A stretch of DNA of 64,000 nucleotides from Minisyncoccota bacterium (GTDB lineage Bacteria > Patescibacteriota > Minisyncoccia > Phycocordibacterales > Phycocordibacteraceae): the NCBI GenBank assembly GCA_028695415.1, contig JAQVIY010000001.1, positions 46,784 to 110,783 on the forward strand, read 5' to 3'. Shown piece after piece: positions 5,364-61,064 of this stretch. Both the position numbers and the translations under genes were made by a program. Each line of letters starts with the position of its first letter. Position 1 is the stretch's first letter. The notes beneath the pieces were generated by a model. The model was not told the origin of the DNA and did not search any database. It saw only the letters and a program-made list of their open reading frames with translations.

Positions 5364-5374
5364 GAGGAATTCAC

Positions 5375-5560
5375 TTGGGCATGATCGATCTGGTCGAATT
5401 CAAGCAGTTACTGAGCCCCGAGGTGCGTGCTTTGCCTGAAAAGGAGATTGAGCGTATCCGTGAGCTTCAGTACGGCTTTGCTAACGCCATATTTGAGATG
5501 TGGCTTAGGGATCGTCACACCTCGTCCATCGAAGAAAATGAGAACAACACTAAAAGCTGA
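5375..5560 (+). CDS. Small hypothetical protein
   Basis: 61-aa ORF between primase and recombinase. Confidence 0.25.
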   Translation: MGMIDLVEFKQLLSPEVRALPEKEIERIRELQYGFANAIFEMWLRDRHTSSIEENENNTKS

Positions 5561-5703
5561 TATACTACGTAGGTACACAACTTCATACCGAGAGCTTTTT
5601 TATTGCCTGATTAAAATAATCGGGCACGGAAAGGGGCTAAGGTTGTTCAGCGTCTCTCGGGATGTTGTGTACACCAACCTTAGTCCCTTTTTGTATTCCA
5701 CTT

Positions 5704-7566
5704 ATGAAGTCTGCTGAAAAAATAAATGTCATCGGGCACTGCCGAGTGAGCTCTTCAAAACAAGCGCAAGAAGGCGAAAGCCTTAGCGTGCAAGAAGGAA
5801 TCGTTCGTGCGCACGCCGAGCGGAATAATTGGAACATGGTGAAGGTGTGGCACGAGAGCTACTCGGGCCGAAAAGAAACTCGGCCAGTATTTAACGAAAT
5901 TCTTACTTACCTCGATTCTCATCCGAGGCAGATTGAATACTATGTCTTTCGTACCATTGATCGCTTCACGCGCGGTGGTACGGGGATGTATGACCAAATG
6001 AGGAAGGAGCTCTTGAAGCGTGGTGTGGCAATGGTTGATACGAGCGGAATGATTCAGAAATCAAAAAATACTCTTGAGGATTTAGATTTTGAATATTCAT
6101 GGAGCCGTCATTCTCCGAGCGAGATCACGGAAGTTGTGGTAGCGACCACTTCAAAACAAGAAGTAACCAATATTGAGACTCGTATGATTGGGCAAGAGAT
6201 CCGATTAACGCAACAGGGGTACAAGGTTCGACACGCGCAAGACGGCTTCTTGAATACCAAGATTTACGATACCGACGGCAAGAAGCGCACGGTGATGATT
6301 GAGGACCCTATCCGCGCCAAGTATCTTCAGGCAATGTTCGAACTTCGTGCAGAAGGTCAGTTGAGTGATTCAGAGATCGTGAGTCGGGTAAATGCAATGG
6401 GATACCGCAGTCGAGCGCACAAGAAATGGGACAAGAGCCACACGAGAATCCTTGGCGCGGGCGGTGGAAAACTGCTTACGGTGAAGCATTTGCAGGAAAT
6501 CATCCAGCGCCCCATTTACGCAGGTTTAATTTGCGAGAAATGGACGAAGCATAAGCCGGTGAAGGCAAAGTTTGACGGCCTAGTGTCCGTGAACATTTTC
6601 AACAAGGCAAATAGAGGAAAGGTCTTCATAGAAGAAAAAGATGATGGGTCTTATGGAATTCTGTACGACCACTATCCCGATCGTGTCGTCGTGAAGAGAA
6701 TGCGAGACAACCCGCTATTCCCGTATAAGTCGGTGGTGATGTGCCCAGAATGCGGGAAGCCGTTCATGGGAAGTCGCTCACGAAGCAAGAGCGGCAATCC
6801 CGTGCCGTATTACCATTGTTCGCGCAAACACAAGTGGATTGGGTTCAATAAGTCTGCGTTTGAGAAGACAATCGAAGATTATGCGAACCGGCTTTATTTC
6901 TTGCCGGACGAGACAACGAGCATGAAGGCCTCGCTGAAGCACCTGTATAACGAGCGTAAGTCAGAAATCGCTCGTGAGACGGTATCTATGGAGGAAAATG
7001 TCGCTGAGCTAAAGATCCAAAAGAAAGAGGCTTTAGAGGCGTTTAAGGCAGCCACAAGTGAGGTAGTGCGCCGCGAGCTCGAAAGAGATATTGAGCAGCT
7101 TGAGACTCGCATCAACGGATCCGGCGCGGAGCACGCAAGTCTCAAGATTACGGAGTCAGATATCGATGCTTTCATGGAGTACGCAAAAGGCATAATGGAA
7201 CACCCAGCAAAAGCGCTATTGAATACAGTAAATGCGCGCCATCAGGAGTCTCTTTACTCTGTGGTATTCGACGAACTGCCATCTATTACGGAGATGGCTA
7301 ATGGAACACCTAAATTGTCTTGGATTTTCAGGCTTTCTGAGGAATCTCAGACACCTAAATCTGTGTTGGCGGGCCCACTAGGAATCGAACCTAGGCTGTC
7401 GGTTTTGGAGACCGATGTACTACCATTATACGATGGACCCTTCGCACTCACGTACGATACCAGACGCTGGGATGGTTTACCACGAGCGATTTATCCCAAA
7501 CGCAGTCGAGGGGAGTCGAGTGGGGAAAGCCGTCCCAGGCAGGGCGATGCGCGGTATGATAGAGAT
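5704..7566 (+). CDS. Large serine recombinase (resolvase N-domain, recombinase domain, zinc ribbon, coiled coil). No in-frame stop: the frame reads antisense through tRNA-Trp and into the next gene
   Basis: Catalytic motif INVIGHCRVSSSKQ; zinc ribbon CPECGKPF...YYHCSRKHKW. ORF track shows a continuous frame 5662..8466. Confidence 0.8.
7367..7440 (-). tRNA. tRNA-Trp (anticodon CCA), CCA encoded
   Basis: Minus strand GGGTCCA TC GTAT AATGGTA GTAC A TCGGT CTCCAAA ACCGA CAGC CTAGG TTCGATT CCTAG TGGGCCC G CCA. Cloverleaf folds, G73. Confidence 0.85.
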
Positions 7567-8466
7567 ATGCGTTCTCGCACTTCACTCTTCGCGCTTCTGC
7601 TTGTGGCGGGTTTGTTTATAGTACCCGCTATTGCCTCTGCACAAAGCGTACCGTTTTTCGGCCCCATCATCCCCCAGGAAGCTAATCAGGGGCTGTGCCC
7701 GGCGAGTTGGGGTATGGTCATCATCGTCATCAATCGGATTATCGCGTTCATGATCACGCTCGCTATTGTCTTCGTCGCGCCTTTAATGATTGCCTATTCC
7801 GGATTCCTCTTCGTCGTGAATCCTGTAAACGCGAGCGGGAAAGAGAAGGCGAAAGAAATTTTACGGAACACCGTTATCGGCATCGTCATTGCACTCTCGG
7901 GCTGGATGATCGTCGATGCGCTTATGGCGGTGCTCTATAACCCAGGCAATGCTGGCGGGACATGGATGACTATTATCAGGGGAAATACTGCCGATGTGTG
8001 CCTCCCGCAGAAAGGAGCGTTACCTAGCGGTACATTGAATCAAACCGGCACGGTAACGAATGTAGGAGTAAGTCCCGGCGCTGCTACGGGAAGATATACG
8101 TTTGATCCGGGCATAGCCGTACAGACGAAAGACGAATCAGGCCCGCTCTCGAGCTTGCTCTCCTGTATGGCGGGGAAATTACCGGCAGGTGTTGGTAGGA
8201 TTTCCTCGATTTCTGATAGCCTTATAACAAGCGGTCAGAAGACTTTTGCGCAGTGTGCAACGGGTGGCTGTCAGCATCAGGCAAACTCGTGTCATTATGG
8301 AGGCAAGACCTGCATTGGCAGCTCGTATGCCGTTGATTTCGGTGATGATGAAAACATCACAATACTCACGGCCGCTGCAAAGGCTTGCGGTGCTCAAACC
8401 CTCAATGAAGGGACGCATCTGCACGCGAGCGTCGGTGCCGTGAGCGGTTGCGGTTGCGGTCTCTAA
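7567..8466 (+). CDS. Secreted/membrane protein: Sec signal peptide, two TM helices, Cys/His-rich C-terminal domain
   Basis: MRSRTSLFALLLVAGLFIVPAIASA signal peptide. In frame with the upstream recombinase ORF. Confidence 0.5.
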   Translation: MRSRTSLFALLLVAGLFIVPAIASAQSVPFFGPIIPQEANQGLCPASWGMVIIVINRIIAFMITLAIVFVAPLMIAYSGFLFVVNPVNASGKEKAKEILRNTVIGIVIALSGWMIVDALMAVLYNPGNAGGTWMTIIRGNTADVCLPQKGALPSGTLNQTGTVTNVGVSPGAATGRYTFDPGIAVQTKDESGPLSSLLSCMAGKLPAGVGRISSISDSLITSGQKTFAQCATGGCQHQANSCHYGGKTCIGSSYAVDFGDDENITILTAAAKACGAQTLNEGTHLHASVGAVSGCGCGL

Positions 8467-16429: not shown

Positions 16430-17215
16430 TCATGAGATCTCGACGCGGATCGGATGGTGGTCGGAGCCGACGCGATCGGGGAGAACCCCCGCTTTTTTAA
16501 TGAAGAAAGAATGCGATACGAGAATATGATCGAGCTGGGACTGCGAGAGCGGATGCGTGATGCCGCCGTAGAGCGGATTCACCAACTCGTATTCGACAAA
16601 ACGTTTTTCAATAGCGGTGCGTTCGCGGCGATAAAGCAGTGCGTCGCGGAGCGTACCACCGAAGAGCCAATTTAGGGGCGTGATGTGCGGTTTCTCGAGA
16701 ATGTTGAAGTCGCCGCAGACTATTGCCGGTCGCCCCGAAGGGCCCCTTTCGGGGCGTTCTATCATCGCGCGTTCGAACTCTCGCAAGCGCCATGCGGGCT
16801 GGGTGCGGGTGAGGTGGAGGTTGAATACGCGTACCGTGCTTTGAGTATCGGGGAGACAAATATCGGCATAGAGCCCGCCGCGATTGCGCGCCTCAGAGAA
16901 ATGAAAAGGGAACATAAGGCGATTGAAGATTCGCCCGCGGAACGAGAGCGCGTTATCTGGAAAAGGTATCGCGCCCTGCCGCTCGATCGGATAGCGAGAA
17001 AGTATGACGAGATAATCTCGCACGACGCCGCTCCTAAATACGCGGTCGAGGCTTGTGCCTGAGGTAAGGTGATACGGGAGTGTCTGAAGCCGCGCGAGAA
17101 AAGCCTCGGGCACTTCTTGGAGACAGAAGATATCGAAATCAGCACGCGAAATAAATTCGAACGCCCGATCAAGCTCACGATTGCGGAAAAGAAGATTCCA
17201 CGAGTAAATCGTCAT
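16430..17215 (-). CDS. Endonuclease/exonuclease/phosphatase (EEP) family protein
   Basis: CGDFNILE and SDHHPIRVEI motifs. Confidence 0.75.
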   Translation of the reverse strand: MTIYSWNLLFRNRELDRAFEFISRADFDIFCLQEVPEAFLARLQTLPYHLTSGTSLDRVFRSGVVRDYLVILSRYPIERQGAIPFPDNALSFRGRIFNRLMFPFHFSEARNRGGLYADICLPDTQSTVRVFNLHLTRTQPAWRLREFERAMIERPERGPSGRPAIVCGDFNILEKPHITPLNWLFGGTLRDALLYRRERTAIEKRFVEYELVNPLYGGITHPLSQSQLDHILVSHSFFIKKAGVLPDRVGSDHHPIRVEIS

Positions 17216-18070
17216 ACTCTATGCCACGCCCCAAACTCTTCTTTTGCGAGGCCGCGCAGCTCGAGGGCGACGAGTGCGGTGAGTGCCTCGCCTGCGGGTA
17301 TACCTGCCGCGCGGAGTATCTCGTCGCGCGTTTTCGGCTCGTCAAGCATACCCCAGATAACGCGCTCGGCGTCCTCGAGGTCGCTCGGCGCCACGTCGCT
17401 TACCGCGCCTTCGCGTGGCGGTATCCCGAGCGCCTCGAGGATATGCAAGGGCTCGGTGACGAGCGCTGCGCCGAGGCGGATGAAGAGGTGCGGGCCAAAC
17501 GCGTGCGGGTCGCCGATACGGTGCGGGATACAGAGCAGGTCGCGATTATATTCGGAAGCGAGCCGCGCGGTGATAAGCGTACCCGACTTATTCCCGGCTT
17601 CGATAACAAGCACCGCATCAGCGAGCCCGACCATAAGGCGATTGCGCGCGGGGAAGTAGTGCGCGCGCGAGGCTTCGTCCGGCGGATATTCAGAAAGCAT
17701 TCCGCCACCCTTCTCTAGTATCTCTTTCGCGAAGCCGCGATTACTCCGTGGGTAGAGGACATCGTCGCCGAGACCTGATCCCGGAAGAACGAGCGTGTGG
17801 AGTCCGGCGGCGAGCGCCGCTTTATGCGCGCAGGTATCAACGCCGAGCGCGAGACCGCTCACTATCGAAATAGGGTAGCCGGCGAGTCCGGCGATAAGCT
17901 TTTCGCACGCCTCCTGTCCGTAGCGCGTCATCGCGCGGCTACCGACGACCGTAAGGAGCTTATGTCCCTTGGGCGGGAGCGCGCCGCGCAACCAGAGCTG
18001 TTTTGGTTGTTGCGGTATCTCACGAAGTTGTGCAGGCCACTCTTCTCGCTCGAGTTCGCGGATTTCCATG
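17212..18070 (-). CDS. dprA: DNA processing protein DprA (Smf)
   Basis: Rossmann core VVGSRAMTRYG...IVSGLALGVD...FPARNRLMVGL...GSLITARLA. Start at internal ATG 18070 (MEIRELE). Confidence 0.8.
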
Positions 18071-18119
18071 GTTTGTAGTATAACGTGCTTTAGTAACTGA
18101 TCCCTGAAAGGAGGATGGT

Positions 18120-18638
18120 ATGAAAGAGGGCGATCCGTTCTTATTGAAGATCGACCGAACTCGGTCATTTGATCCTGTGCGGTTTTACGGAAAGGGGTGG
18201 ACGATTTGGCGCCACTCACCTTTTGGTCATGATGGTCTCAAAGGTGATGAAGACGAAGAAAAGAGCTCACTCGTTCTTAAGGGAATAAACTTCGTACAAA
18301 TCAGCTTCGAGACGTGTCTCAAGAAAGGGGAGACGGTCATCACTGGCGACGAGAAGATTATCAGGCACGCTCGAGCCGGACACACACAATTCGACGCGCG
18401 CATCGCAGAATGTCTTCTCGACGAAGAGGGGTGGGTGACACTTGAAGCAGTGTATGCAGGGTGGGGTATGGACAGCTTCGAATTCACCGGTACGAGGTTG
18501 CGAAGCTTGGCTGGCCGCCGGGCAGTCGTATGTCTCAATCGCGATATCGATCCTTGTGGCCGTGTACGTTGGAGGCCAACCTACGAATGGATCAGTCTCG
18601 TCGTCTACGGTCGGCACCCATCGATCATCCTAGCCTAG
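18120..18638 (+). CDS. Hypothetical protein
   Basis: 172-aa ORF with RBS ggaggatggtATG; terminator hairpin 18655..18693 downstream. Confidence 0.45.
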   Translation: MKEGDPFLLKIDRTRSFDPVRFYGKGWTIWRHSPFGHDGLKGDEDEEKSSLVLKGINFVQISFETCLKKGETVITGDEKIIRHARAGHTQFDARIAECLLDEEGWVTLEAVYAGWGMDSFEFTGTRLRSLAGRRAVVCLNRDIDPCGRVRWRPTYEWISLVVYGRHPSIILA

Positions 18639-21711: not shown

Positions 21712-22842
21712 ATGGACATTATGAAGTCGTTTTGGCAAGGCTTACCTAAGCCGTTTTTCGCGATGGCACCGATGAAGGATGTCACAGACGCGGCGTTTCG
21801 CGCGCTCGTCGCTCGACGAGGCGCGCCAGATGTGTACTGGACAGAGTTCGTTTCTGCTGATGGCCTCTACCACACACGCGAGATACAGAAGATGAAAGAC
21901 GAGGACCCTACGTCGCTCGGAAGCTATGAAGGGCACAGGAATCCGCTCATGCGCGATCTCGTGTATGGAGCCGATCAGCACCCCATTGTCGCACCACAAG
22001 GGCACTTCCATTTTCCTAACCCTGGGTACAGGGAAGGAAAATTGGTCGCACCACAAGGGCACTTCCATTTTCCTAGCCCTGGGTACAGGGAAGGAAAATT
22101 GGTCGCACAGATATTCTCGGACAAGCCGGAGATGATAGCGTATGCGGCGAAGCTCGTCGCCGAACTCGGTTTCGACGGCGTCGATATAAATATGGGCTGC
22201 CCTGACCGCTCGGTCGAGAAGCAGGGTGCCGGTGCCGCGCTTATCAAGAGTCCTGAAAAGGCGCGTGCGATTATTCGCGCCGCAAAAGCAGCGAGCAATC
22301 TACCGGTCTCGGTGAAGACGCGGGTAGGGTACAACAAAGAGACACTCGACGAGTGGCTTCCGGCGCTTCTTGAAGAAGCGCCGGCGGCTATCACGCTTCA
22401 TTTGCGCACGCGCAAGGAGCTCTCGCTCGTATCGGCTCATTGGGAGCTTATGAAGAGGGCGGTGGAGCTGCGCGATCAGATCGCGCCCGAGGTGCTCCTC
22501 ATCGGCAATGGCGACGTGACGAGCGTTGCGGAAGGGAAGCGGCTCGCAAAAGAGACGAGATGCGACGGCATTATGATTGGCCGCGGTATGTTCGGCAACC
22601 CGTGGGTTTTCGCGGGCCGCACGTCGGACGATACGCCGCTCGCAGAGAAGCTCGCGGCTCTGATTGAGCTCGCGCACGGCTTTGAGAATCTCTCTCCGCC
22701 AAAGAATTTCGCGATATTGAAAAAACACATCAAGGCGTTCGTGACCGGCTTTGATGGCGCGGCGCACTTCCGCGCGAAGCTGATGGAGGCGGAGAATGTC
22801 ACCGAGCTCGAGCAAATACTGAAAACATCTAGCTACGTATAA
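21712..22842 (+). CDS. dus: tRNA-dihydrouridine synthase (Dus family) containing an in-frame 2x20-aa tandem duplication
   Basis: APMKDVTDAAFR; DINMGCP; duplicated APQGHFHFP(N/S)PGYREGKLV inserted in the HPI..QIFSDKPE loop. Confidence 0.85.
   Translation: MDIMKSFWQGLPKPFFAMAPMKDVTDAAFRALVARRGAPDVYWTEFVSADGLYHTREIQKMKDEDPTSLGSYEGHRNPLMRDLVYGADQHPIVAPQGHFHFPNPGYREGKLVAPQGHFHFPSPGYREGKLVAQIFSDKPEMIAYAAKLVAELGFDGVDINMGCPDRSVEKQGAGAALIKSPEKARAIIRAAKAASNLPVSVKTRVGYNKETLDEWLPALLEEAPAAITLHLRTRKELSLVSAHWELMKRAVELRDQIAPEVLLIGNGDVTSVAEGKRLAKETRCDGIMIGRGMFGNPWVFAGRTSDDTPLAEKLAALIELAHGFENLSPPKNFAILKKHIKAFVTGFDGAAHFRAKLMEAENVTELEQILKTSSYV
21989..22108 (+). repeat. Tandem 60-bp duplication (2 copies, 1 mismatch) inside dus
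   Basis: gcaccacaagggcacttccattttccta(a/g)ccctgggtacagggaaggaaaattggtc repeated twice. Confidence 0.8.
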
Positions 22843-22876
22843 AAAAGCAACCGCCCGAGTACAACCGGGCGGTTTT
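22609..22876 (+). repeat. Direct repeat copy 1: dus 3' end plus terminator (~268 bp), about 90% identical to 23555..23822
   Basis: Visible alignment of both copies, including the ccgcccg..ccgggcggtttt terminator hairpin. Confidence 0.8.
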
Positions 22877-22887
22877 CAAGAAGCGGC

Positions 22888-23451
22888 TTAGCGGATGAGA
22901 ATGATCGCGGTTATCACGACATTCAGCAGTCCGGCACCGACGGCGACAAAGATATTCGCGAAATCACGTTTCTCTGCGCCGAGCACCACGAAGAGGCAAG
23001 AGACGATTGTCAGAAGCCACAGCCAGAGCGTGCCCGGCTGGGGCTCGGACCAGTAGTCCTTCATAAGCGGCACGAACGAGATCCACATCGCCGTCATGTA
23101 GGCCCACTGCGCCCGAAGTGCATCGAGCGTAATCCAGAGTACGATTGCAACGACCACCAGGGCGGTGGACGAATATTCCGTCCATCTCCAGACTGATGGT
23201 TGGTCGCTTGTGGCGACGACGACGAAGATCAGGAATGCAGCCATCGCCCATCCGATCTGCAGGTACGGCTTTTTGTTGCCACCGCGCCATGCGAGAACGA
23301 GCCCCAGCAGGTCAAGGACAAACACCATCATCCACGTCGCGACATTTTGCTTGACGTTCGTCGTGTACAGCATCCACGCATAGTACGTGGGAATCGCGAA
23401 GCCCATGAGGCCGCCGATCAGTATTGCTTGGGACTTTAGAACTCGTTCCAC
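22888..23451 (-). CDS. Integral membrane protein (about 6 TM), GTG start. Cargo of the dus 3'-end insertion
   Basis: Hydrophobic profile; RBS gaggag 6 nt upstream; promoter TTGACA-17-TACGAT within the palindrome at 23520..23535. Confidence 0.5.
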   Translation of the reverse strand: MERVLKSQAILIGGLMGFAIPTYYAWMLYTTNVKQNVATWMMVFVLDLLGLVLAWRGGNKKPYLQIGWAMAAFLIFVVVATSDQPSVWRWTEYSSTALVVVAIVLWITLDALRAQWAYMTAMWISFVPLMKDYWSEPQPGTLWLWLLTIVSCLFVVLGAEKRDFANIFVAVGAGLLNVVITAIILIR

Positions 23452-23554
23452 GAGTGTCTCCTCAAGAGGTTGAAAGGACAGAGCTACCTACTAGCTTGCG
23501 GTGAATCGTACACCATATGACTTGACATGTCAAGTTCCTGTCTACCGCCTGCTA

Positions 23555-23822
23555 TTCGCGGGTCGTACGAGCGAAGACACGCAGCTCGCAGAGAAGCTCG
23601 CGGCTCTGATTGAGCTCGCGCACGGCTTTGAGAATCTCTCTCCGCCAAAGAATTTCGCGATATTGAAAAAACACATCAAGGCGTTCGTGACCGGCTTCGA
23701 CGGCGCAGCGCACTTGCGCGCGAAGTTGATGGAGGCCGAGAACGCGAGCGAGCTTGAGCAGGCGCTTAAAGTTTCCGGTCATATATAAAAAACGACCGCC
23801 CGTTTAGAACCGGGCGGTTTTA
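23555..23822 (+). pseudogene. Duplicated dus 3' fragment (pseudo-ORF 23501..23788) plus duplicated terminator; direct repeat copy 2
   Basis: Translation FAGRTSEDTQLAEKLAALIELAHGFENLSPPKNFAILKKHIKAFVTGFDGAAHLRAKLMEAEN matches the Dus C-terminus. Confidence 0.75.
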
Positions 23823-43202: not shown

Positions 43203-43856
43203 ATGGATACGTCCGACAGCATGGCTTTGTGGCACGGAGACTTGAATTACCTATTGGCGGGGCACCAGGTGCCTCTCAACTGTTTGTCGTCAGAAGAATG
43301 GCTCGTGGTTATACACAAAGCTCTCGATAGGGTGGCATTGAAATATCTGCCGCACATTCGAGACCTGACGAAGACGCTCTCCACGATACAACAGTGGGGG
43401 TTGTACAACATCGACTCCAGTCCGGAACTCAAGATAGTCGCTTGGAAGGCCGGCAAGAAACATTGGGGGATAGAGAAAGACGTGCGTCTTATTCCCGTTG
43501 GTGCTGTCACAGTACCTCCGCCACCACCAAGGAAAAATGCGTACAGAGGGAAAGACACAACACAACCAGATGTGCACCTGTTCCTTAGTACCAAGCAACA
43601 ATGGATCAAGATGGAACGGATTCTCGTCGACAAGATTTGGGACCAACACGAGGAGCTTTGTTTTTGCGGCCTAAACGAGGATGAACTGATCGAGGTAGTT
43701 GGTGACCAGCGTATCTTCTGGCCGCAAATGCTCTACCACCTGAAGACGCTCGCGGAGCTGAGCATGCGTCAGAAGGAAGAGCATATCGAGCAGCTGGGAC
43801 ATACGATCAGGAGGTTGGATGAAATAACCAGCCGTGTTGGACCAAAGTTCCCATAG
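43203..43856 (+). CDS. Hypothetical protein (cargo of the uvrB 3'-end insertion; lower GC)
   Basis: 217-aa ORF with RBS gaggag; terminator hairpin 43862..43892. Confidence 0.5.
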   Translation: MDTSDSMALWHGDLNYLLAGHQVPLNCLSSEEWLVVIHKALDRVALKYLPHIRDLTKTLSTIQQWGLYNIDSSPELKIVAWKAGKKHWGIEKDVRLIPVGAVTVPPPPPRKNAYRGKDTTQPDVHLFLSTKQQWIKMERILVDKIWDQHEELCFCGLNEDELIEVVGDQRIFWPQMLYHLKTLAELSMRQKEEHIEQLGHTIRRLDEITSRVGPKFP

Positions 43857-43894
43857 CACCAAGCCCGGAGCAATCCGGGCTACTTTATTTATAA

Positions 43895-43935
43895 GGCACC
43901 GGTCCCAAGGCAAAGAAGCCCCGCACTCGGAAGCC
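43895..43935 (+). repeat. Direct repeat copy 2 (remnant uvrB 3' end)
   Basis: See copy 1. Confidence 0.8.
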
Positions 43936-43955
43936 CTTTCGGGAAGTTAGTTGAA

Positions 43956-51347: not shown

Positions 51348-51420
51348 GGGCCGTTAGCTCAGTTGGTAGAGCACCTCATTTGCAATGAGGGGGTCGCAGG
51401 TTCGAATCCTGTACGGTCCA
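51348..51420 (+). tRNA. tRNA-Ala (anticodon UGC), G3:U70
   Basis: GGGCCGT TA GCTC AGTTGGTA GAGC A CCTCA TTTGCAA TGAGG GGGTC GCAGG TTCGAAT CCTGT ACGGTCC A. Confidence 0.85.
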
Positions 51421-51620
51421 CAAAACAAAGGAGCCGGATGCGGAAGCATTCGGCGACTATTGTTTTGTAGGGCCGTACAGGATTCGAAGAGACGGAGCGG
51501 GCACCTGTCCAGCAGGACAGGTCGCGAGTCGCGGACACGACCAAAGTCGAGCGACGGCGAGATTTTGAGTCGCGGAAGAAAAGCGTAATCGCGGTCCTGT
51601 ACGGTCCACAAAAACAAGAA
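51421..51620 (+). repeat. tRNA-Ala trailer insert (174 nt) ending in a direct repeat of the tRNA 3' end (tcctgtacggtccacaaaa at 51595..51613), plus an internal inverted copy at 51463..51492
   Basis: Direct 19-nt repeat of 51405..51423; inverted near-copy ttgttttgtagggccgtacaggattcgaag. Confidence 0.7.
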
Positions 51621-51705
51621 GCGGAGCGCCTATGTTTTTGTAGGATGCCGAAGTGCAAGTAACTTTGGCGCCACAAAATCCGGACAACTATGGCATACTG
51701 CATAT

Positions 51706-52443: not shown

Positions 52444-52514
52444 CGGGCCGGAGTATGCCGGTAGTACGCACGCTTCGGGTGCGTGTAGACCGGGTTCAAT
52501 TCCCGGCGGCCCGA
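52444..52514 (+). tRNA. tRNA-Pro (anticodon CGG), C1:G72
   Basis: CGGGCCG GA GTAT GCCGGTA GTAC G CACGC TTCGGGT GCGTG TAGA CCGGG TTCAATT CCCGG CGGCCCG A. Confidence 0.75.
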
Positions 52515-53257
52515 CAAAGAACATCTCCGAATAATACAGAGAGTTTGTTTTCTGGATAAATATCGTTTGGATAAATCTCAACGAGTCTATAACCAAGCTT
52601 TTTGGCAAGCGAACGCTTTCTTTTGATATTCTTGTCGTAAACTTCTTGTACTCCAGCGAGTCCGAAAAACTCGACTAGGATATCGAAATGTATCTTGAAA
52701 TCAGCCGTCAGTCTCGTATCCCCATATGGATAATTTCGTTCGTGTAGAATACAGTTGCTCGTAAACCAATCGTCGATAATCTTTTCGGTGAACGAATCGC
52801 AATCATGTCCGTCTGTGGCTGTGAATTTTTTCGCAAACAGAACAGGATTCGTCTCAAAGCCCGCTTGTTTGATGGCGTTATTCCAGCTTCCGAAGTTTGC
52901 AGCAAAAGCATCCCACTGATTGAACTCACGCTTGAGTGGAATGCGTCCGTTTAGTACATAAAAATCTCGGATCTTCTTGAGAAGGTCTTCACTCGAGTAC
53001 TTCTTTCGATAGGGTGCAAGACGTTCTCCGACAATCTTTTTTTCTGTTGCGCTCATCCGATGGTAATTCCTTCGATTCTCAATCGCCTGTTTTTGCAGAA
53101 GAGAAATCTGAACATCTTTGGTCCACTGATGTGCGATGCTTATGCTTACGCTTAGTTGCTTTGCTATTTCGCGATGCGTCAATCCTTCAGAACGGAGGAA
53201 GCGCGCGTTCTCTTTAGTCGAGGCAGAATGGCGGACTCCGTTTCTTGCTTTCAGCAT
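52496..53257 (-). CDS. HTH-domain protein with C-terminal Vsr/DUF559-like PD-(D/E)xK endonuclease domain; homing-endonuclease-like selfish gene in an AT-rich insert between tRNA genes
   Basis: N-terminal LTHREIAKQLSVSISIAHQW (HTH). C-terminal TADFKIHFDILVEFFGLAGVQEVYDKNIKRKRSLAKKLGYRLVEI matches the DUF559 pattern D..h.IE.DG...H....D..R...L...G..V.R. Low GC. 3' end overlaps tRNA-Pro. Confidence 0.55.
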   Translation of the reverse strand: MLKARNGVRHSASTKENARFLRSEGLTHREIAKQLSVSISIAHQWTKDVQISLLQKQAIENRRNYHRMSATEKKIVGERLAPYRKKYSSEDLLKKIRDFYVLNGRIPLKREFNQWDAFAANFGSWNNAIKQAGFETNPVLFAKKFTATDGHDCDSFTEKIIDDWFTSNCILHERNYPYGDTRLTADFKIHFDILVEFFGLAGVQEVYDKNIKRKRSLAKKLGYRLVEIYPNDIYPENKLSVLFGDVLCRAAGN

Positions 53258-53283: not shown

Positions 53284-53357
53284 GTCATATAATCGGGCTA
53301 TCGTATAATGGTAGTACGCATGGCTGGGGGTCATGCAGCCTGGGTTCGATTCCCAGT
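53284..53357 (+). tRNA. tRNA-Pro (anticodon GGG), CCA encoded
   Basis: CGGGCTA TC GTAT AATGGTA GTAC G CATGG CTGGGGG TCATG CAGC CTGGG TTCGATT CCCAG TAGCCCG A CCA. Confidence 0.85.
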
Positions 53358-53542
53358 AGCCCGACCAAAAACGTTCGACGTTTTTTCGGGCTACAGCAAG
53401 CGTAGCTTGCGACGGGAATCGAAAGCCGGAGCGATGTTCGGCTAGCAAGCCGAACCGCGAGGCGGGGCCGAGAAAATCCGTGAGTGACGACGAACGGATT
53501 ATTCGTGGCCGAAACCGTATTCGGGGTTCCCAGTAGCCCGAC
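53358..53542 (+). repeat. tRNA-Pro trailer insert (169 nt) ending in a 16-nt direct repeat of the tRNA 3' end (ttcccagtagcccgac at 53527..53542 = 53340..53355)
   Basis: Contains conserved motif cgaaagccggagcgat...cgcgaggcggggccg. Confidence 0.75.
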
Positions 53543-53660
53543 AAATAAGCTTCGTGTTAGAATCGTCCATGCAGTAATTTGTATCGGGCCTGTACGACAG
53601 CGTACATACCCTTCGTTCGGAGCAAGAGAATATGCAGACACATTCTCTTGTCCTCACTTC

Positions 53661-54837: not shown

Positions 54838-55338
54838 ATGCCGGTACTCGTCCCTTTCCTCTTCTTTTGTCAGGCGCTCGGCGCTTCTGTCGGTGTGCTT
54901 ACCGCAGTTTGGAGTGAGGTCGCGTATGTCCGCGCTATGCGCGATGGCAAGGTAGATCACGCTGAGCGTATTCACCTGAACGCGCTCGCGAAAGGGCTCC
55001 GCTTCGGTATGACGCTTGTCCTGCTTGCTTCGCTTGGGCTTGTGGTCACCGCATATCTGCTCGGGGGAGCGGCACAGCCGGCATTTTCTGCGAGCTATTG
55101 GATCACCATCGCGCTCTCGCTCCTCATTATCGGTACTACCTGGGCACTCTCGCGCGGGCGCATCACTTTCGCGCTCGGATCAGCTACCGTCTTCACCGCA
55201 TGGTGGTTCCTCGCATACCTCACCATTGGTTGGCTTCCATCCCTCTCATTCGGTTCTGCGGTCGCGCTTCTCGTGTTCGCGACCGCCACCTTCTACGCAT
55301 TCCTTCAGTACGGCCGATTCATCGTCTTGCGTAAGTAG
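54838..55338 (+). CDS. Hypothetical membrane protein (5 TM)
   Basis: 166-aa hydrophobic ORF. Confidence 0.45.
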   Translation: MPVLVPFLFFCQALGASVGVLTAVWSEVAYVRAMRDGKVDHAERIHLNALAKGLRFGMTLVLLASLGLVVTAYLLGGAAQPAFSASYWITIALSLLIIGTTWALSRGRITFALGSATVFTAWWFLAYLTIGWLPSLSFGSAVALLVFATATFYAFLQYGRFIVLRK

Positions 55339-55361
55339 CTTTTTCGTTTTAGAATGTTTTT

Positions 55362-56459
55362 ATGCTGAAAATCGGTATTGTCGGTTTGCCGAACGTGGGG
55401 AAGTCCACGCTTTTTAATGCACTCACGAAAGCGAGCGTTCCGGCGGAGAATTATCCGTTTTGCACCATCGACCCGTCGGTCGGGGTGGTCGGCGTGCCCG
55501 ATATGCGTCTCGACAAGCTCGCCGACTTCTCAAAGAGCGAGAAGGTGGTCCCGGCGGCGATAGAGTTCGTTGATATTGCGGGACTCGTGAAGGGCGCGGC
55601 CGAGGGCGAAGGACTCGGGAACCAGTTCCTCGCGAATATCCGCGAGACTGACGCGATACTTGAGCTGGTGCGTTTTTTCGACGACCCGAACATTACCCAT
55701 GTCTCCGAAGAGGTGGAGCCGTACAAGGACATCGAGATTATCAATCTCGAACTCGCTCTCGCCGACGCCGAGCAGGTCAGGAAGCGCCGCGATAAGCTCG
55801 TGCGCGATATCAAAACGGGCAACAAAGATGCGGCCGCCGAGGACGCTGCGCTCGAGAAACTCTCTAAAGGCTTCTCGGAAGGTAAGCTCGCGATAAACGC
55901 CGGGCTCACTGACGACGAAAAGAAGCTCGTCTCGACGCTGAATCTCCTCACGATGAAGCCCATCCTCTATGCGTTCAACAAGAAGAGCGGCGGGCGTAAT
56001 TTGGACGAGCTCGCTGACGGTCGTGCAGATCGCGCGTATGAGCTCATTAGGATGCTCGGCGGACGGCACATCTTCCTTGATGCCGTGACGGAGCGCGAGC
56101 TCAATGACGTTGTCGACGCCGATCGCGACGGATTCCGCCAAGAGCTCGGCGTTTCTGAAGACGGTCTGGCCGAGCTTATCCGCGGCGCGTATGAGACGCT
56201 CGGGCTCATCTCTTTCTTCACCACCGGCACCGATGAGACGCGCGCGTGGACGGTCTCCTCAGGGAGTACCGCGCCGATAGCGGGTGCCGCTATTCATAAT
56301 GATTTCTTGAATAAGTTTATCCGCGCCGAGGTGATTGATTGGCAGAAGCTCCTTGAACTCGGCTCCTACGCCGCCGCCCGCGAGAAGGGCATGGTGCGCG
56401 TCGAAGGCAAGGAATATGTCGTCTCTGACGGCGACGTGATGGTCTTCCTCCACGGGTGA
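55362..56459 (+). CDS. ychF: Ribosome-binding ATPase YchF (Obg-family GTPase)
   Basis: G1 GLPNVGKST; TGS-like C-terminus ...DGDVMVFLHG. Confidence 0.9.
   Translation: MLKIGIVGLPNVGKSTLFNALTKASVPAENYPFCTIDPSVGVVGVPDMRLDKLADFSKSEKVVPAAIEFVDIAGLVKGAAEGEGLGNQFLANIRETDAILELVRFFDDPNITHVSEEVEPYKDIEIINLELALADAEQVRKRRDKLVRDIKTGNKDAAAEDAALEKLSKGFSEGKLAINAGLTDDEKKLVSTLNLLTMKPILYAFNKKSGGRNLDELADGRADRAYELIRMLGGRHIFLDAVTERELNDVVDADRDGFRQELGVSEDGLAELIRGAYETLGLISFFTTGTDETRAWTVSSGSTAPIAGAAIHNDFLNKFIRAEVIDWQKLLELGSYAAAREKGMVRVEGKEYVVSDGDVMVFLHG
56427..56459 (+). repeat. Direct repeat copy 1 (ychF 3' end, 33 bp); matches 57163..57195 at 27/33
   Basis: gacggcgacgtgatggtcttcctccacgggtga vs gccggcgatgtgatgatcttcctccacggctag. 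Both copies end in a stop codon. Confidence 0.7.
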
Positions 56460-56491
56460 TACAAATCGCGGCGTAGCGTATACTGGAGGTA

Positions 56492-56839
56492 ATGGAAACG
56501 AAAATCGTCACCGACAGCATCACCCGCGACGAGCTGCGTACGCTCGCGCATGAGCAATATGGAGACATCATCAAAGCCGTTGTCGATACAGCGCAAGGCG
56601 TCATGGGCATCGGCGGTGAGCTGCACGTCGATATCCAGTCGCTACTCATTGAGAAAGCCGGGTCGCAGGGCGACACGACGTGGGGCATCAACCTCTATCT
56701 CGATCAGACGGGAGATGATTTCATCGAATTCGATTCGATGGTGAACCTGAAGCCCTTGATTGGGAATCGGACGCGTAATGTCGAAAGTGAGGAGGCGCGT
56801 GCCAAGATACGCGAGATCGTCGCGCGACTCGTCCGCTAA
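56492..56839 (+). CDS. Hypothetical protein (cargo 1 of the ychF 3'-end insertion)
   Basis: 115-aa ORF with RBS ggaggtaatggaaacg. Confidence 0.45.
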   Translation: METKIVTDSITRDELRTLAHEQYGDIIKAVVDTAQGVMGIGGELHVDIQSLLIEKAGSQGDTTWGINLYLDQTGDDFIEFDSMVNLKPLIGNRTRNVESEEARAKIREIVARLVR

Positions 56840-56844
56840 TAATT

Positions 56845-57159
56845 ATGGCCGTCTCTCGTGAGCGATGGTTCACCCTCTCACTCGCCGATCAGCTCGGCAA
56901 TGTGGGGAGCGAGGTTGGCCGCGCGCTCGCGTGGCAGGGGAAGAACACAGATCGTTTTTGGGGAGCGGCCGGACGGGCGCTTGAGCTTCTCGATCTCACA
57001 CGCGAGGATGCGCGATGGCGGAGTCGGCGTGCCGAGCTCGACCGCGCGCGCGAGTCAGTCGCCGATGCAATCCTCGGCGGAAGCGAATATGGAAGTCAGC
57101 TCGCCGACCTGGAGCGGTATTTCATACAGTTCGCTCTCTACTCCCGCCGGACCAACTAG
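56845..57159 (+). CDS. Hypothetical protein (cargo 2 of the ychF 3'-end insertion)
   Basis: 104-aa ORF; Arg-rich, no His. Confidence 0.4.
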   Translation: MAVSRERWFTLSLADQLGNVGSEVGRALAWQGKNTDRFWGAAGRALELLDLTREDARWRSRRAELDRARESVADAILGGSEYGSQLADLERYFIQFALYSRRTN

Positions 57160-57162
57160 GCT

Positions 57163-57195
57163 GCCGGCGATGTGATGATCTTCCTCCACGGCTAG
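57163..57195 (+). repeat. Direct repeat copy 2 (remnant ychF 3' end)
   Basis: Translates ...AGDVMIFLHG* in one frame. Confidence 0.7.
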
Positions 57196-57215
57196 CACGA
57201 CGACCGCAGCTGCGC

Positions 57216-57225
57216 GTGGTATAAT
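57216..57225 (+). promoter_or_regulatory. Extended -10 GTGGTATAAT flanked by GCGCG/CGCGC inverted repeats; the ATG of the next gene lies 8 nt downstream (leaderless-type arrangement)
   Basis: gcgcgtggtataatgcgcgcctATG. Confidence 0.4.
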
Positions 57226-57233
57226 GCGCGCCT

Positions 57234-58190
57234 ATGGACAAACCGAAAACAACACCGAAAGATTTCTTTATGTGGGCAGGGGCGGTGGTTGCGTTCTATT
57301 GGAGCGTCATCGCCTATATTTTCCTCGTGTTCAATTACATAGACTTCGTGTTCCCGAATGTTCTTACCTATTATCCGAGCGACCCGTACCAGAGCGGCAT
57401 CAGCTACCAGATGGCATCTATCATCGTCCTCCTCCCGCTGTACCTTCTCCTAATGAAACTTATTCGAAGAGATATCGCACGCGACCTGTCGCGTAGCGAG
57501 ATATGGGTGCGTCGCTGGGCGCTTATTTTGACCCTCTTCGTCGCGGGTGCGGCGATAGCGGGCGACCTTATCACCCTCCTCACCACCTTCTTGAGCGGCG
57601 AGGCGCTCACGGTAGCGTTCTTGCTCAAGACGCTCACTATCTTCCTCATCGCGGGCGGCGTGTTTCTGCACTTCATCAGCGATCTGCGGGGCTACTGGAC
57701 AACGTATCCTGCCCGCAAGCGCGCGGTCAGTATCGGCGTTGCGCTGCTTGCCGCAGTGACTATCATCTCGGGTTTCTTTATTGTCGGCACGCCGGCAGAG
57801 GCACGTCTCGCGCGCTTCGACACGCAGAAAGTGAATGATCTGCAGAATATCCAGTACCAGATTATCAATTACTACCAGGCGAAACAGAAATTGCCGGGAG
57901 CCATAACCGATCTCGAGAACACGCTCTCCTACGGCTCTCTACCTATTGACCCGCAGTCGGGTGACGCGTATGGATACCAACCGGGCGAGGGGCTCTCGTT
58001 CAAGCTTTGCGCGACATTCAACACGGCGAGCCGAATGAATTATGCGCAAACGTCGGCGACAGTGCCCGTCGGCATCAGGGAAAAGGGACAGGACAATTGG
58101 CAGCATGGCGCAGGACAGGTCTGTTTTGATCGTGTTGTTGACCCCGCCTTCTATCCGCCGCTCACTAAAGTGGCACAGCCTGTTCTATAG
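57234..58190 (+). CDS. Hypothetical membrane protein (4 TM N-terminus, extracytoplasmic C-terminal domain)
   Basis: 318-aa ORF. Confidence 0.5.
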   Translation: MDKPKTTPKDFFMWAGAVVAFYWSVIAYIFLVFNYIDFVFPNVLTYYPSDPYQSGISYQMASIIVLLPLYLLLMKLIRRDIARDLSRSEIWVRRWALILTLFVAGAAIAGDLITLLTTFLSGEALTVAFLLKTLTIFLIAGGVFLHFISDLRGYWTTYPARKRAVSIGVALLAAVTIISGFFIVGTPAEARLARFDTQKVNDLQNIQYQIINYYQAKQKLPGAITDLENTLSYGSLPIDPQSGDAYGYQPGEGLSFKLCATFNTASRMNYAQTSATVPVGIREKGQDNWQHGAGQVCFDRVVDPAFYPPLTKVAQPVL

Positions 58191-58223
58191 CCCGAGGACC
58201 GTCAGAACCAGTATTGGGAAATT

Positions 58224-61064
58224 ATGTCATACGACCATCGCGAGGTAGAGAAGAAGGCTCAGGAAAAGTGGTCGGAGCTTGGCTTGTATCAGACCGACCT
58301 CTCCGACACTTCGAAAGAGCCGTTCTATCTCCTCGTTGAGTTCCCGTATCCTTCGGGCGACCTTCATATCGGCCATTGGTACGCATTTGCGGTGACCGAT
58401 ATCTACGCGCGCATGCTCCGGGCGCGGGGAAAGAATGTGCTTTTCCCGATAGGGTTCGACGCGTTCGGCTTGCCTGCCGAAAATGCCGCGATAAAGAACG
58501 GGGTCAACCCGAAAGAATGGACGTATGCGAATATCGAGCGCATGCGTAAACAACTTCGGAGCATGGGGCCGTCATTTGATTGGAGCAAAGAGGTCGTTGC
58601 GTGCGACCCGAGCTACTACCAGTGGACGCAATGGCTTTTCACAAAGCTCTTCGAACACGGGCTCGCCGAGCATCGCGAGGCGGCGGTGAAGTGGTGTCCT
58701 AAGGACCAGACCGTGCTCGCTAATGAGCAGGTCGTCGACGGCTGTTGCGAGCGATGCGGCACCGCAGTCGAAGAAAAGCGTCTCACGCAGTGGTTCCTCA
58801 GAATCACTCAGTACGCCGACCGGCTCCTCAAAGGCCTTGATGCGCTCCCGTGGCGCGAAGAGATAAAGGATGCGCAGCGCGCGTGGATAGGGAAGTCAGA
58901 GGGAGCCAAACTTCAATTTCCAATTTCCAATTTCCAATTCTCAATTGAGGTGTTCACGACGCGACCCGATACGATATATGGCGCGACCTATGTCGTGCTC
59001 GCGCCCGAACATTCATTGATACAAAATAAAGAATTAGGAATTAGAAATTATGAAGAGGTTCAAGAATATATAAAGAAAACCTCAAAAAAGACAGAGCGCG
59101 AACGAAGCGAGAATAAAGAGAAGACCGGCGTGAAGCTCGAGGGTGTGAGCGCGATAAACCCGGCCACCAAAGAAGAGATACCGGTCTACATTGCCGACTA
59201 CGTGCTTAGTTCTTATGGCACGGGTGCGGTAATGGCCGTCCCCGCCCACGACGAACGCGATATGGAGTTCGCGAAGAAATTTGGTCTGCCGGTGCGGCAG
59301 GTCATCAGTCCGGTGCTTACTCAGACGACCGGCTCAGCGACATTCCACGAAAACGAACCGGCTGAGGAAAGTTTCGGCATCATCGCGCTCGTGAAGCATT
59401 GGTCGGAAGACAAATACATCGGACTCCGGTGGCCGAACGCTGGATGGGGAACGCTCCTCACGGGTGGCATCGATGATGGCCTCTCACCTAAAGAAACGGT
59501 CTTGAAGGAGATACGCGAGGAGACGGGCTATACAGACGCGCGTATCGTGCGGCAGCTCGGGGTCATTCATAGCCGATATTTTCATGAACCGAAGAAGCTG
59601 AACCGTTTCGGACATGCGCCCGCATTTCTCGTGGAGCTTGCAAGCGACGCGTCCGTACCGGTAAGCGACGCAGAGAAAGAGAAGCACGAAGTGCAGTGGC
59701 ATACCCGGGAAGAGTTGCGGAGTTTCCTGACCGCGAATTCGCACCTTGTTGCACTCGACTTGTACGAGGAGCGTGCGTATACGGGCGACGGCATTCTCGC
59801 CAACTCCGGTGAGTTTGACGGGAAGGGAAATCGCGAAGCGATGTGGGACATCGTCGCGGCTGTGGGCGGCGAGCGGACGACCCAATATCGCTTGCGCGAT
59901 TGGCTCGTCTCGCGCCAGCGCTATTGGGGCTGCCCGATACCTATCGTGTATGACCCCGAAGGCAAACCGCACACTATTCCCGCTGAACATTTGCCGTGGC
60001 TTCTGCCGACCGATGCTGATTTCACTCCAACAGGGAAATCGCCCCTCGCCTCGTCAAACGAGCTTCGCGAGCGCGTAGTAAAGCTTTTTGGCGAGGGCTG
60101 GACGCCCGAGTACGACACCCTCGATACCTTCGTGGATTCTTCGTGGTATTTCTTGCGCTATCTCGATCCGAAGGATTCGCACAACTTCTCTGACGCATCG
60201 CTTATGAAGAAGTGGCTGCCAATCAATCGTTACTCGGGCGGCAGTGAGCACACAACCATGCACGTGCTCTACGCGCGATTCTTTATGAAGGCGCTGTACG
60301 ATCTTGCGCTCGTGCCGGTAGAGGAGCCATTCACTGAACGCTTCAATCGCGGACTCATTATGGGGCCCGACGGAGCCAAGATGAGCAAGTCGAAGGGGAA
60401 TGTCGTGAACCCCGACGAATTCGTCGAGAAGTATGGCGCTGACGCCGTGCGTCTCTATCTCGCCTTTATCGGCCCCTACAACGAGCCGGGGAGCTATCCG
60501 TGGAATCTCGAGGGGGTGGCCTCGATGCGCAAGTTCTTGGACCGCGTCGAGCGTCTCGTTGAGAAACATGCGGCGGTTCAATCATCAGAAAGCGTGGCGG
60601 GCGAACCGTTATTGCGAGCGCTCGCAAAGGCAAGTCTCAAAGCAGCGGAGGACGGCGATCGGTTCAAGTTCAACACCGGCATCGCGGCGCTTATGGCGCT
60701 TATGAACGAGCTTGAATCTACCGCTAGTATCCCGGCAACGATTCTTCAGCAGTTCGTCGTTATACTCGCGCCGTTCGCACCGCATCTCGCGGAACATCTC
60801 TGGGCTCGACTCGACGGGGAGGGTAGCGTGCACGAGCAGGCATGGCCGCTCTTTGATGACAGCGTGCTCGCATCAAATACCACAGAGATTATCGTGCAGG
60901 TCAACGGTAAGCGACGCGGTTCGATTATGCTCGCCGTATCAGGTACTGAAAAAGAGGCAGTGAATGCAGCAAAAGCCGTTCCGGCAGTAGTCGCGGCACT
61001 CTGCGGGAAAGAGCCGAAACGGGTGATATATGTCGCAGGTAAGATACTGAACTTTGTGGTATAG
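58224..61064 (+). CDS. leuS: Leucyl-tRNA synthetase carrying a ~160-aa Nudix-fold insertion between the editing (CP1) domain and the KMSKS region
   Basis: HIGH motif as HIGH(W); KMSKS; editing domain. Insert AGWGTLLTGGIDDGLSPKETVLKEIREETGY resembles a Nudix box. Confidence 0.9.
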   Translation: MSYDHREVEKKAQEKWSELGLYQTDLSDTSKEPFYLLVEFPYPSGDLHIGHWYAFAVTDIYARMLRARGKNVLFPIGFDAFGLPAENAAIKNGVNPKEWTYANIERMRKQLRSMGPSFDWSKEVVACDPSYYQWTQWLFTKLFEHGLAEHREAAVKWCPKDQTVLANEQVVDGCCERCGTAVEEKRLTQWFLRITQYADRLLKGLDALPWREEIKDAQRAWIGKSEGAKLQFPISNFQFSIEVFTTRPDTIYGATYVVLAPEHSLIQNKELGIRNYEEVQEYIKKTSKKTERERSENKEKTGVKLEGVSAINPATKEEIPVYIADYVLSSYGTGAVMAVPAHDERDMEFAKKFGLPVRQVISPVLTQTTGSATFHENEPAEESFGIIALVKHWSEDKYIGLRWPNAGWGTLLTGGIDDGLSPKETVLKEIREETGYTDARIVRQLGVIHSRYFHEPKKLNRFGHAPAFLVELASDASVPVSDAEKEKHEVQWHTREELRSFLTANSHLVALDLYEERAYTGDGILANSGEFDGKGNREAMWDIVAAVGGERTTQYRLRDWLVSRQRYWGCPIPIVYDPEGKPHTIPAEHLPWLLPTDADFTPTGKSPLASSNELRERVVKLFGEGWTPEYDTLDTFVDSSWYFLRYLDPKDSHNFSDASLMKKWLPINRYSGGSEHTTMHVLYARFFMKALYDLALVPVEEPFTERFNRGLIMGPDGAKMSKSKGNVVNPDEFVEKYGADAVRLYLAFIGPYNEPGSYPWNLEGVASMRKFLDRVERLVEKHAAVQSSESVAGEPLLRALAKASLKAAEDGDRFKFNTGIAALMALMNELESTASIPATILQQFVVILAPFAPHLAEHLWARLDGEGSVHEQAWPLFDDSVLASNTTEIIVQVNGKRRGSIMLAVSGTEKEAVNAAKAVPAVVAALCGKEPKRVIYVAGKILNFVV

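Follow-up and report, generated by a model that had tools for sequence, protein, structure and literature searches.

The window analysed here is a stretch of 64,000 nucleotides from the Minisyncoccota bacterium contig JAQVIY010000001.1 (positions 46,784 to 110,783 of the forward strand), and our subject is a short fragment of its ychF gene that recurs downstream of the gene, behind two small open reading frames (ORFs). The ychF gene (55362..56459, forward strand) is intact and encodes the redox-regulated ATPase YchF, a protein of 365 residues with the Pfam domains MMR_HSR1 and YchF-GTPase_C; its sequence is the same as that of a protein annotated as YchF at NCBI, which comes from a metagenome-assembled genome of Candidatus Pacebacteria. 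The protein ends in DGDVMVFLHG, and the 3′ terminus of the gene reads ...CTGACGGCGACGTGATGGTCTTCCTCCACGGGTGA. Its functional last 11 codons with their TGA stop form the upstream copy of a direct repeat (56425..56459, forward strand). The downstream copy (57161..57195, forward strand; CTGCCGGCGATGTGATGATCTTCCTCCACGGCTAG) is a pseudogene fragment, a 3′ remnant of ychF that reads (A)GDVMIFLHG and closes with TAG.

Between the two copies lies a two-gene operon on the forward strand. A promoter-like site (56456..56484; GTGATA, a 17-nucleotide spacer and TATACT) is followed by a GGAGG ribosome-binding site, by ORF1 (56492..56839), a DUF5674 family protein of 115 residues assigned by Pfam, and by ORF2 (56845..57159), a conserved unnamed protein of 104 residues with a predicted four-helix bundle. 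The GGGTGA at the ychF end also supplies the −35-like GTGATA of the ORF1 promoter, and a −10 box of the TATACT/TATAAT type stands upstream of ORF1 in L081, L087, L108 and L158 as well (loci of relatives are cited by such numbers throughout). The first-pass annotation had described ORF1 and ORF2 as overlapping, which they are not, because a gap of 5 nucleotides separates them. The remnant is in frame with ORF2 and begins one codon past the ORF2 TAG, so that the frame reads ...RRTN, stop, AAGDVMIFLHG, stop. An extended −10 box, TGGTATAAT (57217..57225, forward strand), read directly from the sequence, follows 21 nucleotides past the remnant stop and 8 nucleotides before the ATG of the conserved right-hand neighbour, a DUF5671 membrane protein gene (57234..58190, forward strand; Pfam PF18920), after which comes leuS (58224..61064).

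The recurrence of the terminal 11 codons of ychF, stop codon included, had been the central claim of the first-pass annotation and is borne out. The copies lie 703 nucleotides apart and agree at 27 of 33 nucleotides in the unit used there, which counts the stop codons, or at 28 of 31 in the unit of a repeat finder. Their six mismatches are A/C, C/T, G/A, G/C, G/A and A/G, which give two synonymous changes, a conservative Val-to-Ile replacement, one change at the junction and TGA in the gene against TAG in the downstream copy. With up to three mismatches allowed, the ychF tail matches these two sites only in the window, and none of 100 dinucleotide shuffles of the window yielded any match. When the 33-nucleotide tail of each of about 75 homologous ychF loci was compared with the 4 kb downstream of it, the best match had 11–18 mismatches, against 6 in the window; the upstream and reverse-strand controls behaved like the downstream side in these loci. 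A chance match, the alternative named beforehand, is excluded by the shuffles and by about 130 homologous loci. An assembly artefact can be excluded by inference, since the longest identical run between the copies, 13 nucleotides, is too short for a k-mer join.

Comparison with relatives places the insert in a conserved gene neighbourhood. The order ychF, variable gap, DUF5671 gene, leuS, sigma-like gene is kept across Paceibacteria. Within the window's own clade (YchF 72–89% identical), most loci are empty sites, in which the DUF5671 gene starts with its ATG only 21–50 nucleotides, TGGTATAAT included, after the ychF stop. Such empty sites, for which the first-pass annotation had proposed a comparative search, are thus present in many relatives: this layout is found in L097, L099–L103, L113 and L159, with the box directly visible after the ychF stop in L097, L099–L103 and L159. 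Unrelated inserts of 0.4–1.3 kb occupy the same gap in L094, L098, L104, L106, L111, L112 and L117, and the interval between ychF and the DUF5671 gene is therefore a hotspot.

The remnant and the 38-nucleotide spacer behind it (...GCGTGGTATAATGCGCGCCT ATG) are collinear with the empty-site arrangement. In L159, a working YchF in the empty-site position ends SDGDVMIFLHG, with the same Ile as the remnant, a residue found at this place in only one of 120 close YchF sequences. The ychF DNA of L159 ends ...GATGATCTTCCTCCACGGCTGA and continues with GCGTGGTATAATACGCTCCTATGGACAAACC, matching the window spacer at 29 of 31 positions (bases counted by hand). This collinearity and the L159 allele place the downstream copy at the position of the resident ychF end. 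From the sequences, we infer that the downstream copy is the displaced original terminus, and that the upstream copy, at least in its last bases GGG TGA, would be a substitute end that came with the insert. L081 and L099 both have the clade consensus tail, from which the functional copy departs in these last bases alone (GGGTGA), and the remnant keeps GGCTAG; clade relatives end in GGC TAG or similar, and GGGTGA is confined to the window's upstream copy. The direct repeats of the target-gene terminus flank the insert and restore the ychF coding sequence. The earlier proposal that the copies bracket two small genes accordingly gains support, as a restored and a displaced terminus around an insertion into the ychF end.

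The same pattern recurs elsewhere in the window, where the ychF repeat had been listed as the third independent duplication of a gene 3′ end; it is one of several, as those of dus and uvrB are real, and two tRNA 3′ ends are also duplicated. At uvrB, the last ~19 codons are present twice (43056–43114 and 43893–43954, or 43056–43101 and 43893–43938 in a narrower delimitation), the remnant lies just before uvrA, and the repeats flank a family-less ORF of 217 residues (43203..43856); the first 16 codons of the two copies differ by four synonymous changes and one non-synonymous change. The dihydrouridine synthase gene dus (21712..22842) has its last 234 nucleotides and terminator hairpin duplicated 946 nucleotides downstream (copies 22609–22876 and 23555–23821). 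These repeats flank an unannotatable ORF of 187 residues on the minus strand (22888..23451), and the remnant is still an open frame of 95 residues (23501..23788). Overall, the proportions of synonymous (pS) and non-synonymous (pN) differences between the dus copies are 0.36 and 0.095, with a ratio of non-synonymous to synonymous rates (dN/dS) of about 0.2; in the 3′ flank they reach 0.75 and 0.15, and the flanks as a whole are saturated at synonymous sites with pN 0.15–0.25. The 5′ part of dus contains two tandem 57-nucleotide units that are 98% identical (21988–22101), with an internal inverted repeat visible by eye.

Synonymous and stop-preserving changes thus dominate at ychF, uvrB and dus. 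Since the differences are mostly synonymous in all three genes, the copies are diverged alleles of different lineages and not a decayed in-place duplication. The tRNA-Ala(tgc) and tRNA-Pro(ggg) duplications (51348–51622 and 53294–53554) each repeat 28 nucleotides of the tRNA 3′ end at 86–89% identity, 177–188 nucleotides downstream, and duplication lengths across the genes of the window range from 28 to 268 nucleotides. Within the short inserts at these repeats, the respective tRNA 3′ end seems to be present once more, inverted and degenerate. A gene for an HNH-repeat protein of the kind associated with homing endonucleases (52496..53257, minus strand) lies between two tRNA-Pro genes.

Retention of the downstream copy in relatives, which the first-pass annotation had taken as a test, holds only in part. 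Among pair-bearing genomes at this locus, no tail copy follows ORF2 in L081–83, L087–89, L091 or L108, and a decayed copy is present in L096 only. The remnant is therefore a lineage-specific scar and not a maintained part of a cassette. In L096, GTGACGGTCTACCCCCACGGCTAG lies 14 nucleotides past the ORF2 stop and has 21 of 24 positions in common with the clade tail; behind it comes the same mini-cassette of about 400 nucleotides that L094 carries after its real ychF stop. The pair has therefore reached a ychF tail in a second right-hand background. In L108, part of a tail, GGGTCTTCCTTCACGGGTTAG, survives about 60 nucleotides past a ychF whose own tail uses different codons. This remnant precedes the pair, and a hairpin, with no cargo gene, separates it from ychF; the arrangement looks like an allele replacement with an imprecise right junction.

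Remnants of ychF tails are nevertheless recurrent. A peptide-level scan of 132 loci for downstream copies of the last 10 residues and stop gave matches in six, namely the window, L014 (four copies), L019, L020, L037 and L134, and its upstream control gave one weak match. With the L096 and L108 remnants, found separately, the total is about 8 of about 133 loci. In L014 (5097–6300), from a distant Paceibacterium, ychF is followed by an array of four different mini-cassettes of 220–310 nucleotides, each ending in a 35–42-nucleotide copy of the ychF tail, and several contain a TTGACA box, a tiny ORF and a hairpin. The tail copies read EDGSVIEFKI, EDGGAIEFKI, DGSEIEFKI (itself preceded by a stop codon) and EDDCRIEFKK, each closed by a stop; three of them and the L019 copy share an Asp-to-Ser or Asp-to-Gly replacement at the same codon. 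Remnants start at codon −11 (K/x-DGD motif) in the window, L014, L019 and L020 and at −8 in L096 and L108, and those of L037 and L134 are shorter. We read the feature as the remnant of a displaced gene end, at a hotspot where cassettes have inserted repeatedly.

The remnant is probably a relic of the original ychF end, left when a segment of about 0.7 kb recombined into the very end of the gene. The incoming segment would have brought a replacement for the ychF end together with a promoter and the operon for the DUF5674 and four-helix-bundle proteins, and the original last 11 codons and stop would have been stranded before the DUF5671 promoter. The most likely route would be uptake of DNA from a related Paceibacterium and host recombination of the RecA/DprA type, with the ychF terminus serving as the short homology at the right-hand junction. 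A cassette flanked by a tail copy could then spread likewise to any relative, irrespective of the sequence behind ychF there. Host recombination is favoured because the insert encodes no recombinase (only ORF1 and ORF2), attC-like hairpins are absent (folding z-scores of four repeat copies −0.7 to +0.2), no viral carrier was found, the tail is conserved, and the window contains a DprA gene (17212..18219). The tail ranks third of 370 sequence windows for synonymous-codon identity (0.62, compared with a mean of 0.48 and a standard deviation of 0.06, in 17 clade genomes). At the junction, a CTG of only 3 nucleotides is shared. Any competence genes besides dprA would lie beyond the 64 kb of the window. 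A phage or plasmid origin was set aside, as none of the viral contigs carries the ychF tail pattern or a relative of ORF2.

Several observations weigh against this account. Trees suggesting that ychF travels with the pair have bootstrap values of 37–51%, with the DUF5671 gene below 10%; neighbour-joining placed ychF with pair-bearing genomes, and this incongruence with the right flank was rejected as evidence because the bootstrap is too low to use. The window YchF shows no clear mosaic in sliding-window identity and is closest to a genome that lacks the pair, and most genomes with the pair at the ychF locus have no remnant. No donor was found, nor any strain with YchF identity above 87%, so the direction and age of the event are not directly observed. 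The 118-nucleotide perfectly identical core of the dus copies, between saturated flanks, points to a need for a crossover with conversion or for later gene conversion. The remnant start at −11, common to four independent lineages, fits a defined recombination site better than random illegitimate joins, and a defined site used by a trans-acting recombinase would better account for this constant boundary and for the L014 array. The closest relatives reach 87% identity for YchF, 90% for ORF1 and 85% for ORF2, and none of these contigs resolves the event; all three proteins are about 80% identical to the window in L081 and L087. The L001 contig (YchF 81%) ends inside ychF; the contig of L093, which is closest when judged by the sigma-like gene, begins shortly before the DUF5671 gene and shows a different neighbour.

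A site-specific integrative cassette is the most probable of the alternatives, although we regard it as rather unlikely. A trans-acting tyrosine or serine recombinase would use the last ~35 nucleotides of ychF as attB, small circles would carry a mimic of the ychF end as attP, the repeats would be attL and attR, and L014 would record successive integrations. The −11 boundary is constant in the window, the four L014 copies, L019 and L020 despite differing cargo and base composition, the cassettes sit flush against the repeats, and the window also holds the duplicated 3′ ends of tRNA-Ala and tRNA-Pro. A large serine recombinase is encoded at 5662..8466, and L081 and L159 have such genes immediately before ychF; however, these genes sit 5′ of ychF or 48 kb away, and no recombinase lies in or next to the ychF-tail inserts examined (window, L014, L019 and L020). 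Large serine recombinases leave only a few base pairs of identity. Nor are the boundaries uniform, given the −8 starts in L096 and L108 and the shorter remnants in L037 and L134, and duplications of 28–268 nucleotides occur at different genes of one genome. The L108 remnant encloses no cargo gene, and no phage or plasmid contig carries the site.

Elements that target the 3′ ends of genes and tRNAs duplicate their att sites, and integrase-less derivatives that can be mobilised in cis exist. The nearest documented parallel is the integrative and conjugative element Tn5253, which integrates into the 3′ end of the GTPase gene rbgA, with a duplication of 17–84 nucleotides that varies with the host (PMC8571831), and there, as at ychF, the duplication restores the coding sequence. 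Both inserts lie in the end of a conserved gene for a ribosome-associated NTPase, both are flanked by a short imperfect duplication of the terminus that restores the frame, and the window also has duplicated tRNA 3′ ends. In contrast to Tn5253, the window insert is only 0.7 kb, has no integrase, excisionase or transfer genes and has no known circular form; remnant boundaries differ among ychF lineages, and one relative carries four sub-kilobase cassettes.

Homology-facilitated illegitimate recombination and the sequential displacement of gene ends offer a second parallel. Orphan C-terminal arrays of Rhs and CdiA, and the hybrid atp6 gene of Allomyces mitochondria with its displaced native 3′ end, are systems of this kind. 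In Vibrio cholerae, arrays of type VI secretion effector and immunity genes arise by sequential displacement of gene ends (PMC5361080). As in the window, incoming DNA brings its own gene end and downstream gene or genes, the resident end survives as a fragment, repeated events build arrays (L014), and the copies differ like alleles. In those systems, however, the part exchanged is the variable, functional one (a toxin domain), or a homing endonuclease is encoded in the insert, whereas the stretch exchanged at ychF is the best-conserved part of a housekeeping gene, and its cargo is not known to act in mobility or conflict.

Integron arrays share with these loci small cassettes of the same orientation at one fixed point, each with a repeat of about 35–40 nucleotides, as in the L014 array. 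They differ in that no IntI lies next to the site, the L014 cassettes and the window pair have promoter-like sites of their own, and the repeat is the terminus of a coding gene; neither L014 nor the window locus has an IntI-type integrase or attI. The last ~35 nucleotides of ychF, and perhaps of uvrB, dus and the tRNA genes, might be portable recombination sites that bound small self-expressed cassettes, forming an integron-like hotspot without the parts of an integron; cassettes would build up into arrays such as that of L014 and hop between diverged genomes, via host recombination after DNA uptake or an unrecognised trans-acting recombinase. We put this forward only tentatively and think it unlikely. 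The kind of signature is known, and it is unusual here as an integrase-less, small-cassette form in Patescibacteria.

The remnant might also be kept for a function, as the upstream region of the DUF5671 promoter or as a read-through extension of ORF2, a view compatible with either origin and, in our judgement, improbable. It lies at about −25 to −59 from the TATAAT box, where the ychF end sits in empty-site genomes, it is in frame with ORF2, and a similar remnant survives in L096. Yet the spacing from ychF stop to −10 box varies from 6 to ~70 nucleotides among relatives, and the pair-bearing L087, L081 and L108 drive the next gene without a remnant. The in-frame placement has a prior of one in three, and no YchF-like tail occurs among 120 listed ORF2 homologues. 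No Rfam match was found in 55000–58600, and no stable structure either.

The insert genes themselves bear on a further suggestion of the first-pass annotation, namely that they are reminiscent of a toxin-antitoxin system or other two-component selfish cargo. ORF1 has 649 homologues, and the ORF2 family, which has no Pfam entry, comprises at least 372 proteins of 65–85% identity. A DUF5674 gene directly precedes the ORF2 homologue in every fetched locus in which upstream sequence is present, and the pair forms an operon in Paceibacteria, Kaiserbacteria and Adlerbacteria at 65–90% identity. It follows ychF as in the window in L087–89 and L108, follows ychF with other small genes around it in L081–83, L091 and L158, lies between rpe and tkt of a pentose-phosphate operon in L084–86, and follows a PemK gene in L090.

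That the pair is a toxin-antitoxin or other addiction or defence module spreading selfishly is very unlikely, and the suggestion found no support. Its appearance as a small adjacent two-gene operon at several different loci, and its place beside a PemK toxin gene and a reverse transcriptase in L090, are consistent with such a module. Its strong conservation speaks against this reading, as does its location within a metabolic operon of some genomes. The remote homology searches proposed for both proteins were run and gave no toxin-antitoxin or defence match: Pfam yields only DUF5674 for ORF1 and nothing for ORF2, so that neither belongs to a recognised toxin or antitoxin family, PADLOC and NCBIfam have no matches, and sequence and profile searches of the PDB gave nothing significant. 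The predicted folds, a generic four-helix bundle for ORF2 and an alpha/beta fold, have no informative PDB match and do not resemble toxin or antitoxin folds (PIN, RelE, MazF, HEPN/MNT, RHH, HTH and similar). In the literature searched, DUF5674 is not mentioned. The pair is a strongly conserved operon and not a recognisable toxin-antitoxin pair.

The least probable account, an in-place duplication of 35 nucleotides upon insertion (a long target-site duplication, or a tandem duplication with deletion) and subsequent drift of the downstream copy, would explain why direct repeats flank the insert and why each copy is three changes from the clade consensus tail, but it is opposed by the bias to synonymous and stop-preserving differences in all three protein genes, by the saturated dus flanks, by the Ile codon and GGCT-stop ending that the remnant shares with the working L159 allele, and by repeat lengths of 28–268 nucleotides that fit no known transposase; the insert has no transposase and no terminal inverted repeats, and no second copy of ORF1 or ORF2 was found. 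The template and variable repeats of a diversity-generating retroelement were also considered and rejected, because the mismatches are not adenine-specific and no reverse transcriptase lies at the window locus.

Bacteria of the Candidate Phyla Radiation have tiny, tightly packed genomes, and the route by which they gain genes is little understood. A repeated pattern links this locus with the dus, uvrB and tRNA cases of the same 64 kb and the ychF-tail remnants of other genomes: small genes enter at the terminus of a conserved gene, a replacement terminus comes with the incoming DNA, and a datable scar remains of the old one. If this is general, such scars could mark, at little cost, recent gene gain and recombination across diverged lineages of uncultured bacteria. 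The L014 array, with its four cassettes, suggests a capture site, and the finding also flags a very conserved two-gene operon, that of DUF5674 and the four-helix-bundle protein.

Other features of the window and of related loci were recorded. In the window, a primase-helicase-like gene (NrS-1 polymerase HBD and AAA_25 domains) adjoins the gene for a large serine recombinase of 934 residues (Resolvase, Recombinase and Zn ribbon domains), and this region (3360–8466) is probably an integrated mobile element; a tRNA-Trp called by ARAGORN on the opposite strand inside the recombinase ORF is probably spurious. A gene for a TraG/VirD4-like coupling protein lies at 35734–38493. In L081 (419–2080) and L159 (1928–3568), the end of a large serine recombinase gene overlaps or abuts the start of ychF, so integration seems to occur on the 5′ side of this gene as well; for pneumococcus, a prophage attB directly before ychF is reported (PMC8637289). 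A reverse transcriptase gene stands directly upstream of ychF in L087 (601–1988), where its association with bAvd suggests a diversity-generating retroelement, and another near the DUF5674 pair in L090 (1–507). The leucyl-tRNA synthetase (LeuRS) of the window (58224–61064) has a NUDIX domain inserted at residues 404–500; LeuRS proteins of relatives occur with or without this insert at identities from 45% to 77%, which suggests that different LeuRS types are present in one clade.

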